Shown one piece after another: positions 25,591-27,964 of a DNA stretch of 64,000 nucleotides; position 1 is the stretch's first letter, and each line of letters opens with the position of its first letter. This DNA is from Escherichia coli (GTDB lineage Bacteria; Pseudomonadota; Gammaproteobacteria; Enterobacterales; Enterobacteriaceae), in the NCBI RefSeq assembly GCF_036507355.1, contig NZ_AP027877.1; one strand, 5' to 3'. Under the pieces are notes generated by a model. That model was given only the letters and a program-made list of their open reading frames with translations, searched no databases and was not told the origin of the DNA. Made by a program: the position numbers and the translations under genes.

Positions 25591-27131
25591 AACACTCAAA
25601 GAAAGAGGTAATTTTAGAATGAAATTATCTGTGATGATTATTAATACACTGCAGAGAAATAAAAAACAATCTGAAGCATGCTCTGAAACATCCTACTCTG
25701 TCACTCTAATGATGGCACCTTGCTCTTCTTATAAAGAAGGGAACAATTAAGAATATTAAATTTTCAAACTTTCATCAACTTCACATCAAGAAATTAAAAA
25801 ATTTAAACATTAATCTAAATAATAAAAACCTGATCACATAATCGGGTACGATTTTATCCGATAACTATAATGCTATAACTCTGGGAAATGGTTGGAATAC
25901 ACCGCTGGGTGCCATCTCTTTTTACGCTGCCCGAGCGAGTAGTAAGTTAAATAATGATACCAGACACGAAGGTACGAGCTATCAGGTCGCCTATAATAAA
26001 TATCTAGTACAAACAGCCACTCGATTTAGCGTGGCCGCCTGGCGTTATGCTTCGCAGGATTACAGGACATTCAGCGACCATCTTTACGAAAATGATAAAC
26101 ACTATCATCAGAGTGATTATGATGATTTTTATGATATTGGCAGAAAAAATAGCCTTTCTGCCAATATTATGCAACCTTTATCCAATAATCTGGGAAATGT
26201 ATCATTAAGTGCGCTTTGGCGGAATTACTGGGGGCGAAGTGGAAATGCTAAAGATTACCAATTCAGTTACTCCAATAACTGGCAACACATTAGTTATACT
26301 TTCTCTGCCAGCCAATCTTATGATGAAAATAATAAAGAAGAGGAGCGTTTTAATCTGTTTATCTCCATTCCTTTCTACTGGGGGGATGATATTGCCAAAA
26401 CACGTCACCAAATTAACTTATCGAATTCGACCTCATTTTCCAAAGATGGCTATTCCTCCAACAATACTGGAATTACTGGCATAGCCGGTGAACATGATCA
26501 GTTAAATTATGGTATATATGTTAATCAGCAACAACAAAATAATGATACCTCGCTTGGTACGAATTTAAGCTGGAGAACTCCCATCGCCATAATAGATGGC
26601 AGCTATAGTCATTCTAAAAACGCCTGGCAAAGTGGTGGAAGTATTAGTAGTGGATTAGTTGTCTGGCCCGGTGGTATTAATATCACTAACCAGTTATCCG
26701 ATACATTTGCAATTCTGGATGCGCCTGGGTTAGAAGGTGCACATATTAATGGACAAAAATACAATCGAACAAACAGCAAAGGCCAGGTTGTTTACGACCT
26801 GATAATACCTCATCGTGAAAACCATCTGGTACTTGATATAGCAAACAGTGAAAGTGAAACAGAATTGCAGGGCAATCGTCAAATTATTGCACCTTACCGT
26901 GGAGCAGTTTCTTATGTGCAGTTTACAACTGACCAACGTAAGCCCTGGTATATACAGGCACTGCGTCCCGATGGTTCGCCATTAACCTTTGGCTATGACG
27001 TACTGGATCTCCAGGAAAATAATATTGGAGTCGTTGGCCAGGGTAGTCGCCTTTTTATTCGCGTAGATGAAATTCCGGTGATGCTGCCAACTTACTGATT
27101 TAGTGTATGATGGTGTTTTTGAGGTGCTCCA

Positions 27132-27407
27132 GTGGCTTCTGTTTCTATCAGCTGTCCCTCCTGTTCAGCTACTGACGGGGTGGTGCGTAACGGCAAAAGC
27201 ACCGCCGGACATCAGCGCTATCTCTGCTCTCACTGCCGTAAAACATGGCAACTGCAGTTCACTTACACCGCTTCTCAACCCGGTACGCACCAGAAAATCA
27301 TTGATATGGCCATGAATGGCGTTGGATGCCGGGCAACAGCCCGCATTATGGGCGTTGGCCTCAACACGATTTTACGTCACTTAAAAAACTCAGGCCGCAG
27401 TCGGTAA
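27132..27407 (+). CDS. insA: IS1 InsA
   Basis: 91-aa [43 protein letters not shown]...; the A-run TTAAAAAAC -1 frameshift site lies near its 3' end. Confidence 0.9.
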
Positions 27408-27829
27408 CCTCGCGCATACAGCCGGGCAGTGACGTCATCGTCTGCGCGGAAATGGACGAACAGTGGGGCTATGTCGGGGCTAAATCGCGCCAGCGCTGGC
27501 TGTTTTACGCGTATGACAGGCTCCGGAAGACGGTTGTTGCGCACGTATTCGGTGAACGCACGATGGCGACGCTGGGGCGTCTTATGAGCCTGCTGTCACC
27601 CTTTGACGTGGTGATATGGATGACGGATGGCTGGCCGCTGTATGAATCCCGCCTGAAGGGAAAGCTGCACGTAATCAGCAAGCGATATACGCAGCGAATT
27701 GAGCGGCATAACCTGAATCTGAGGCAGCACCTGGCACGGCTGGGACGGAAGTCGCTGTCGTTCTCAAAATCGGTGGAGCTGCATGACAAAGTCATCGGGC
27801 ATTATCTGAACATAAAACACTATCAATAA
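27326..27829 (+). CDS. insB: IS1 InsB (transposase made as an InsAB' frameshift fusion)
   Basis: 167-aa ORF overlapping insA in the -1 frame. Confidence 0.9.
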
Positions 27830-27964
27830 GTTGGAGTCATTACCGAAATTCCCACTGGAATAAAAGTTGCTCTCAATGATGAACAGAACTTATTCTGTAC
27901 TATTACTTTTCAACACGTTATCGATGAAAACAAAACATATATATGCCAGTAAAAGGAGTTTACT

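Follow-up and report, generated by a model that had tools for sequence, protein, structure and literature searches.

An IS1 insertion in the usher remnant of Escherichia coli O-island 1, probably recent and by simple transposition

The window, a 64,000-nucleotide stretch of the Escherichia coli contig NZ_AP027877.1 (assembly GCF_036507355.1), contains a single copy of IS1 (27077-27844), which lies near the 3' end of a fimbrial usher frame and a short distance upstream of an adhesin-like gene. This arrangement raises the question of whether the insertion broke a working fimbrial operon and altered the expression of the gene behind it, or whether it fell into DNA that had already lost its function. 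The highly probable explanation, in our view, is that an intact IS1 of the IS1A type recently moved by simple transposition into an already dead gene. Nothing contradicts the structural side of this account; the functional side, a near-neutral insertion with a polar effect, is what we infer. In kind the insertion is ordinary.

The locus is O-island 1 (z0020-z0025), an AT-rich segment (35% GC) bordered in the core genome by rpsT (23422..23685, plus strand) on one side and nhaR (28962..29861, minus strand) on the other. Besides the usher frame and the adhesin-like gene, the island carries espX1 (24169..25590, plus strand), which is intact, encodes 473 aa and is named from the annotation of syntenic loci; its matches in NCBIfam are weak pentapeptide-repeat ones.

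The element, its target duplication and its age

The IS1 (27077..27844, plus strand) is complete and of the IS1A type, with 100% identity to many copies annotated as "IS1-like element IS1A family". At 768 bp it has exactly the length typical of the IS1 family, and both of the imperfect terminal repeats of ∼23 bp that mark the family (GGTGATGCTGCCAACTTACTGAT and GGTAATGACTCCAACTTATTGAT) are present. The left repeat, IRL, reads GGTGATGCTGCCAACTTACTGAT (27077..27099, plus strand) and the right one, IRR, ends in ATCAATAAGTTGGAGTCATTACC (27822..27844, plus strand); over its first 35 positions, the left end agrees with the reverse-complemented right end at 22. The gene order is also that of the family, with insA followed by insB' in the -1 frame and an A6C slippery motif between them. 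The insA gene (27132..27407, plus strand) starts with GTG and encodes 91 aa with a zinc ribbon (Pfam Zn_ribbon_InsA, 1.3e-21) and a helix-turn-helix (HTH_Tnp_IS1, 4.7e-31). The programmed -1 frameshift motif TTAAAAAACTC (27381..27391, plus strand) leads into a 232-aa InsAB' transposase frame (27132..27829, plus strand) that has no internal stop and whose insB' part matches DDE_Tnp_IS1 (2.3e-78). The earlier note had described insA and insB as intact, and the domain matches and the open frame bear this out. A consensus scan finds an inward promoter-like site in the IRL (CTGCCA, 16 nt, TATGAT; 27084..27111, plus strand), which we take to be the insA promoter from its position. The intact sequence, together with the fresh duplication described below, suggests that this copy is potentially active.

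The element is flanked by two exact copies of an 8-bp direct repeat, GAAATTCC, at 27069..27076 and 27845..27852; empty-site genomes have this sequence in single copy. The interval of 27070-27851 given in the earlier note falls one base short at each end; its claim that the two repeats are identical stands on exact comparison over 8 bp. A 9-bp duplication is ruled out, as the corresponding 9-mers differ (TGAAATTCC against GAAATTCCC). Target duplications of IS1 are 8 or 9 bp long (PMC12428005), so the repeat found here is of a size expected for the family. The chance that an exact 8-mer would abut both ends of IS1 is ∼1.5e-5. A chance origin of the repeat is excluded by these odds and, more decisively, by the empty site: when IS1 and one repeat copy are removed in silico, the reconstructed site (300 + 300 bp of flanks) occurs as one contiguous sequence in 3,631 of the 5,426 complete E. 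coli genomes, at identities of up to 99.8%. In E. coli IAI1, the alignments of the two IS1 flanks overlap by exactly 8 bp. IS1 entered codon Pro784 of the 816-codon usher between its second and third bases (27076/27077).

Taken together, the sequence comparisons indicate that the IS1 at 27077-27844 is a simple transposition and not a deletion junction, as had been proposed. A product of IS-mediated rearrangement, whether by adjacent deletion, inversion or recombination between two copies, has precedents in this island, since the IS1A of K-12 has no repeat and is missing 4,060 bp, and the copy in strain 042 goes with the loss of ∼44 bp. In the window, by contrast, the duplication is exact and both flanks are colinear with the empty-site genomes with nothing missing, which already refutes such an origin and leaves it hardly credible.

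The insertion also appears to be recent, because a nearly identical contig has the empty site and the junction is absent from the complete genomes. The contig, GCA_047852605.1, matches the left flank at 100% over 2,888 bp and the right flank at 99.975% over 4,080 bp. A query across the left junction gave a one-piece match in none of the 5,426 complete E. coli genomes; the three genomes in which at least 80% of the query was covered proved to be two-piece matches to IS1 copies elsewhere. The chimeric 355-aa usher-IS1 open reading frame, looked up by its exact sequence, had no record, and a scan of JGI metagenome contigs for a 31-nt junction sequence gave 0 matches. The judgment of the earlier note that the transposition was "probably recent" agrees with these results. 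As the junction is absent from the 5,426 complete genomes, it is usable as a strain-specific marker.

The uniqueness of the junction could also be read as a sign that a repeat-resolution error during assembly placed IS1 here, the more so as most E. coli carry several copies of IS1, with a median of 11 places per genome. We regard this as highly improbable, since a misplaced repeat would not yield a perfect 8-bp target duplication at both ends of the element.

An usher remnant and an older deletion

The usher frame upstream of IS1 (25842..27076, plus strand) covers residues ∼373-784 of 816, runs into the element and ends in RVDEIPVMLPTY followed by a stop. Its detached 3' tail (27845..27952, plus strand) consists of EIP, encoded by the repeat, and residues 785-816 with a TAA stop. 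Excision of IS1 in silico joins the two pieces into a frame that aligns with residues 367-816 of the intact 816-aa usher of E. coli 042 at 97% identity. The restored C-terminal peptide is the one stated in the earlier note, which had also held that the reconstructed frame would be uninterrupted. That reading of the 3' end holds; what does not hold is the implied picture of an otherwise intact gene, as the codons for residues 1 to ∼372 were already deleted.

The deletion is visible when the window is compared by BLAST with 042. A segment of 2,441 bp is missing at a junction (25845..25847) where 3 bp are common to both sides, and the loss took two genes, for the major fimbrial subunit and the chaperone, together with 1.1 kb from the 5' end of the usher, corresponding to residues 1 to ∼372. 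This amounts to the N-terminal 45% of the usher, the PapC_N domain included. In the intact 042 protein, Pfam detects PapC_N, Usher and PapC_C; in the excised frame it detects PapC_C and only positions 201-549 of the Usher profile, and PapC_N is absent. The window remnant is therefore like the FimD/PapC-type usher of O-island 1 (ECs_0022 / Z0022; 816 aa in 042 and Sakai) over residues 367-816, but lacks PapC_N and the first ∼200 positions of the barrel profile, so that the set expected of a full-length usher (PapC_N, a complete barrel with plug and PapC_C) is not there. The cognate chaperone and major subunit genes are not there either, both lying within the 2,441-bp segment that 042 and Sakai retain. 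The same deletion junction is present as contiguous sequence in 2,424 of the 5,426 complete genomes and also occurs in IAI1. The IS1-free form of the remnant is widespread among E. coli genomes, and the annotations of IAI1, W137 and S1-CAM-01-C list it as a pseudogene.

These comparisons bear on the reading in which IS1 knocked out a functional usher and fimbrial operon while an outward or hybrid promoter of the element came to drive the adhesin-like gene. As a whole we find this very unlikely. The element does interrupt the usher frame within the PapC_C domain, with 32 codons still to come, as such a knock-out would require. The usher was, however, already without residues 1 to ∼372, the chaperone and major subunit genes were gone, and the IS1-free remnant is found in many genomes, so that the knock-out part is already largely refuted. 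The usher was dead before IS1 arrived: with the subunit, the chaperone and the usher N-terminus lost to the earlier 2,441-bp deletion, the insertion inactivated nothing functional. The annotation is corrected by this result, in that the usher is a remnant and not a functional gene disrupted by an insertion sequence.

The downstream adhesin-like gene and the promoter question

The gene behind IS1 (27965..28924, plus strand) is intact, encodes 319 aa and is the last gene of the fimbrial cluster. It is preceded by a Shine-Dalgarno sequence, AAGGAG (27953-27958, plus strand), and the distance of 120 bp from IS1 to its ATG at 27965 is as given in the earlier note. That note had called the gene adhesin-like, which fits a FimH-like homologue, but had missed that it is the unsplit form of z0021 (fmrA) and z0020 of O157:H7. 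The gene has 97.9% nucleotide identity to z0021 + z0020 of Sakai. A tract of seven A inside it (28256..28262, plus strand) is an A8 in O157 Sakai, where the extra base splits the gene in two. Residues 1-99 of the 319-aa protein are identical to Z0021 (AAG54320.1, its sequence confirmed by exact look-up) at 96 of 99 positions, after which Z0021 ends in a 9-aa frameshift tail. FmrA of EHEC O157:H7 is thus the 108-aa N-terminal product of the A8-split frame, whereas the frame in the window is unbroken, with A7, and runs to 319 aa.

Used as the sole query, the 319-aa protein gave no meaningful match in Pfam, in NCBIfam or, by phmmer, in the PDB. A word-indexed homologue search returned close relatives only, and the family was identified only once an exhaustive search had been extended by a profile and a fold prediction. 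The profile of the family matches the FimH pilin domain (E 0.002), and a match to Pfam Fimbrial (PF00419) is found in 8 of the 13 sequences in the alignment, all of them distant homologues. The AlphaFold2 model has a mean pLDDT of 82, and its best matches in the PDB are FimH (E 1.2e-09), FocH, CfaE, PapG, CupB6 and LpfD. The signal peptide was judged by eye from MKWILLITLSLYSFIVQSA. By its predicted fold, the product is a FimH-like homologue with the two domains of a tip adhesin, an N-terminal one for receptor binding and a C-terminal pilin domain. It resembles the FimH class of two-domain tip adhesins in this respect, but its assembly into a pilus would need another system here, where the cluster retains neither chaperone nor usher.

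Whether IS1 supplies a new promoter for this gene, as the earlier note had suggested, is the second half of the knock-out reading. IS1 is in the same orientation as the gene and only 120 bp upstream of it, and IS1 fusion promoters are documented elsewhere, where they depend on a -10 box at the right spacing in the flanking DNA (PMC9330008). At the IRR junction, the hexamers that lie 16-18 nt downstream of TTGGAG (CACTGG, ACTGGA and CTGGAA) do not, on inspection by eye, look like a -10 box. Nor does the consensus scan detect anything promoter-like in the interval 27845-27965, the only such site being the inward one in the IRL; so crude a scan may overlook a promoter that is weak or not dependent on sigma-70. 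A hybrid promoter newly formed at the IRR junction is therefore unlikely on the sequence, and the suggestion is not upheld.

The sole plausible effect of the insertion would be on the 319-aa gene 120 bp downstream. Before the insertion this gene would have been coupled to the usher frame with a gap of 12 nt, and the 768-bp IS1, oriented the same way, now lies in front of it. IS1 is polar on downstream genes. The most likely effect on the 319-aa gene would thus be less transcription from upstream, perhaps partly offset by a weak, InsA-repressed read-through from the IS1 promoter. With no working function lost, the insertion is probably without cost and near-neutral.

The 319-aa gene itself leaves some room for another outcome. 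[quoted passage not shown] The 319-aa gene stays intact in many genomes that have neither the chaperone nor the usher, and because of this it might have a function of its own, by analogy with the repression of motility by FmrA; the insertion then need not be neutral. Against close relatives, the synonymous to non-synonymous substitutions in the gene are 0:4 and 0:7. That all of them are non-synonymous points to relaxed constraint.

IS1 in O-island 1 of other strains

The IS1A of K-12 occupies the same nhaR-rpsT locus, in the same orientation relative to the two border genes, and is 766/768 identical to the window copy, with the same ends, insA, A6C frameshift and insB'. The two differences lie at position 444 (Ser to Arg in InsB') and position 486 (synonymous). 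The K-12 copy has no target duplication; its junctions correspond to window positions 23950 and 28787, and it replaces 4,060 bp that hold espX1, the usher remnant and the 319-aa gene except for its final 138 bp, whereas the window copy lost nothing. The claim that the window site is different from that of K-12 is thus correct.

IS1 is also present in O-island 1 of 042, S1-CAM-01-C, W137, HeN100, CFSAN061769, NRZ99027-2, 11PC and SL124, that is, the same element in the same AT-rich target. Several of these copies entered the usher remnant or the 319-aa gene by simple insertion. The sites are all at other nucleotide positions, none has the junction of the window, and both orientations occur. An IS1 lies nearby in the same orientation in 47 genomes and in the opposite orientation in 15, these being counts of genomes and not of independent events. 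An orientation bias had seemed possible from the initial same-orientation examples, which were an artefact of same-strand joining; a query with the reversed IS1 found the 15 genomes. The choice of target would follow from the preference of IS1 for AT-rich DNA, with the same island carrying IS1 at many positions in other strains.

An adaptive reading, in which the insertion changed expression of the z0021/z0020 homologue and was selected for its effect on motility or adhesion, is unlikely. It draws on the near identity of the first 99 residues to Z0021 (96/99), on the motility phenotypes in the FmrA reviews noted above, and on the many strains with IS1 in this island, in this gene and around it. 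The exact insertion, however, is in no other genome and so gives no sign of spread, the AT-richness of a decaying island accounts for the repeated insertions, the FmrA work concerns a 108-aa frameshift product and not a secreted, adhesin-like protein of 319 aa, and the 0:4 and 0:7 ratios suggest relaxed constraint. A wider form of non-neutrality is quite improbable: here IS1 would cut the 319-aa gene off from upstream transcription or feed read-through into it, changing flagellar motility or adhesion, the many IS1 insertions in O-island 1 would reflect repeated selection beyond an AT-driven choice of target, and the IS1A deletion of K-12 would be the end state.

Under the preferred account, a near-neutral transposition into a dead gene, the window copy takes its place in a stepwise erosion of O-island 1, from the full operon (042, O157) to the remnant left by the 2.4-kb deletion, then to scattered IS1 insertions and finally to the 4-kb IS1-bounded deletion of K-12. 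As one more IS1 in a decaying AT-rich island, it is of little importance for biology at large. Its position just upstream of an unsplit fmrA homologue could nonetheless make it a natural test of whether the expression of this gene affects motility.

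The IS1 copy and its target duplication

The only IS1 copy in the 64-kb window lies within the 3' end of a fimbrial usher remnant and spans 27077-27844 on the plus strand, with a length of 768 bp and the canonical ends GGTGATGCTGCCAACTTACTGAT and ATCAATAAGTTGGAGTCATTACC. Its insA gene (27132-27407) matches the Pfam families Zn_ribbon_InsA and HTH_Tnp_IS1, the insB' frame matches DDE_Tnp_IS1, the slippery motif TTAAAAAACTC is found at 27381-27391, and the -1 fusion frame runs for 232 aa without a stop. Judged from its sequence, this copy is intact. Many copies annotated as "IS1-like element IS1A family", on chromosomes and plasmids alike, match it at 100% identity, and 4,970 of 5,426 complete E. 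coli genomes contain IS1. The K-12 copy at the nhaR-rpsT locus of MG1655 (K-12 IS1A) differs from the window copy at two positions, one of which is a Ser to Arg change in InsB'.

Directly outside both IS1 ends lies the direct repeat GAAATTCC, at 27069-27076 and 27845-27852. IS1 is reported to generate duplications of 8 or 9 bp (PMC12428005). The duplication here is 8 bp, because identity is lost when the comparison is widened to 9 bp; a 9-bp duplication is ruled out, as the 9-mers flanking the element are not identical. The earlier note correctly placed IS1 and its 8-bp repeats in this interval, but its coordinates, 27070-27851, fall short by one base at either end. The observation itself is confirmed.

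The empty site was reconstructed as a 600-bp query, in which IS1 and one repeat copy were removed and 300 bp from each side were joined. This sequence is contiguous in 3,631 of the 5,426 complete genomes, with identity up to 99.8%. The alignments of E. coli IAI1 to the two sides (window 20769-27076 and 27845-34151) overlap by exactly 8 bp in IAI1 coordinates. Across the same interval, the identity to IAI1 is 98.3% left of IS1 and 99.65% right of it. A near-identical draft contig, GCA_047852605.1, carries the empty site and encodes an identical 319-aa downstream protein; its left flank agrees with the window at 100% across 2,888 bp, and its right flank differs at a single position in 4,080 bp. 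Because this empty-site contig matches both sides, the left/right mosaic predates the IS1 insertion. No complete RefSeq E. coli genome has at least 99% identity over the 20 kb left of IS1 (window 7077-27076).

The occupied junction between usher and IS1 is rare or unique. It was found in none of the 5,426 complete genomes, where the three genomes covering at least 80% of the junction query proved to be two-piece matches to IS1 elsewhere; an exact look-up of the chimeric usher-IS1 ORF returned no record, and a junction scan of metagenome contigs gave no match. Assemblies from short reads usually break at IS1, so a junction missing from drafts says little; the empty-site relative, nearly identical on both sides, is strong evidence for a recent insertion. 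Taken with the exact 8-bp repeat and the contiguous empty site, it bears out the proposal of a simple, probably recent transposition.

A decayed usher in O-island 1

The segment between rpsT and nhaR corresponds to O-island 1 of EHEC O157:H7 (z0020-z0025), which has been described as a putative fimbrial island (PMC10877973, PMC9387321). In window orientation, the gene order is ileS (-), ribF (-), yaaY, rpsT (+, 23422-23685), espX1 (24169-25590), the usher remnant, IS1, the 319-aa gene (27965-28924), nhaR (-, 28962-29861) and nhaA (-). Without IS1, the island has a GC content of 34.8%, versus 50.9% for the entire window. The espX1 gene is intact here (473 aa), with only weak pentapeptide-repeat matches in NCBIfam; where other genomes carry the same remnant, several have espX1 broken by a frameshift, an internal stop or an IS1 insertion.

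A fuller cluster is present in E. coli 042 and O157 Sakai, comprising espX1, genes for a major fimbrial subunit and a chaperone, an 816-aa usher and the 319-aa gene. In the window, 2,441 bp of the 042 sequence are missing at a deletion junction (25845-25847), and with them the genes for subunit and chaperone as well as the 5' half of the usher gene (its first 1.1 kb). The end of a terminator-like hairpin (25828-25847) coincides exactly with this junction, probably by chance. In 2,424 of the 5,426 complete genomes, a 300-bp probe spanning the junction matches in one piece; the remnant allele is thus commoner than the full operon.

When IS1 is excised in silico, an uninterrupted usher frame extends from 25842 over 444 codons and aligns to residues 367-816 of the 042 usher with 97% identity, as the earlier note anticipated in proposing that excision restores the C-terminus. 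The otherwise intact usher that it implied is not found. The Pfam matches of the remnant are confined to Usher profile positions 201-549 and PapC_C, whereas the 042 usher also has the PapC_N domain, and annotations of IAI1 and other genomes list the IS1-free form of the same remnant as a pseudogene. The cut made by IS1 falls behind the second base of codon Pro784 and detaches 32 C-terminal residues, and the upstream frame now ends ...RVDEIPVMLPTY followed by a stop. The usher was dead before IS1 arrived.

Distinct sites in K-12 and other strains

K-12 IS1A (MG1655 19796-20563) shares the orientation of the window copy, but no direct repeat surrounds it and it stands where 4,060 bp of the island are missing. 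The sequences on its two sides correspond to window 23950 and 28787, so the claim that the two copies occupy different sites holds. The last 138 bp of the 319-aa gene, next to nhaR, are all that remains of that gene in K-12. IS1-mediated deletion or recombination leaves no repeats (PMC9330008).

Other complete genomes carry IS1 at window 26731-26737 (S1-CAM-01-C), in the usher remnant (HeN100; CFSAN061769, in opposite orientation), in the 319-aa gene (W137, NRZ99027-2 and 042) and in espX1 (11PC, SL124). The 042 insertion, an IS1A at window 28073-28118, is missing ~44 bp of target and is not a clean duplication. Near the present site, IS1 copies with the orientation of the window copy occur in 47 genomes and reversed copies in 15, these being counts of genomes and not of independent events. 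O-island 1 (window 23951-28924, 35% GC) is a frequent IS1 target, in keeping with the known preference of the element for AT-rich DNA, and looks like an IS1 hot region.

The downstream 319-aa gene and the likely effect of IS1

The 319-aa gene starts 120 nt past IS1 and 12 nt past the usher stop codon, with the Shine-Dalgarno sequence AAGGAG. The protein alone has no Pfam, NCBIfam or PDB sequence match. An exhaustive HMMER search recovered full-length homologues at 23-43% identity, and in an alignment of 13 sequences (the query and homologues) eight, all homologues, match Pfam Fimbrial. The FimH pilin domain is a weak match for the alignment profile (E 0.002), and the AlphaFold2 model (mean pLDDT 82) finds FimH (E 1.2e-09), FocH, CfaE, PapG, CupB6 and LpfD as its best matches. 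Together, these homologue, profile and model matches support the label "adhesin-like" at the level of a predicted FimH-type fold.

In O157 Sakai, an extra A in the A7 tract at window 28256-28262 gives A8, and the gene is annotated as a pseudogene. The split yields two ORFs that correspond exactly to EDL933 Z0021 (108 aa) and Z0020 (207 aa). Z0021 is the reported motility repressor FmrA (PMC9387321, PMC10877973); over the first 99 residues, the window protein and Z0021 agree at 96 positions. Z0021 consists of a signal peptide, the first part of an adhesin receptor domain and a 9-aa out-of-frame tail. A single-base slip in an adhesin-like gene is an odd origin for a regulator. Codon differences from close relatives are 0 synonymous versus 4 nonsynonymous, and 0 versus 7; from more distant alleles the ratio is about 1:1. 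These counts give no sign of strong constraint.

The 319-aa gene has the same orientation as IS1, and the earlier note had suggested that outward or hybrid IS1 promoters could affect it. For a fusion promoter to arise, the flank must supply a -10 box at the right spacing (PMC9330008). The candidate hexamers downstream of TTGGAG in the right inverted repeat (IRR) are CACTGG, ACTGGA and CTGGAA, none TATAAT-like, and a consensus scan reported no promoter between 27845 and 27965, which leaves the idea without sequence support. The same scan places an inward promoter of the left inverted repeat (IRL) at 27084-27111.

IS1 insertions exert strong polarity, and the element's own promoter is a weak one that InsA represses. 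For these reasons, IS1 would most likely lower expression of the 319-aa gene, with at most weak read-through. An orphan pilin-type subunit with no chaperone or usher is also unlikely to be stable, and the insertion is probably near-neutral. The interpretation in the earlier note thus stands for the transposition event and the K-12 comparison, but it errs by omission where the usher's condition is concerned, and the sequence does not support the promoter that it proposed. The locus presents a known element, showing known behavior, in a known decaying island.
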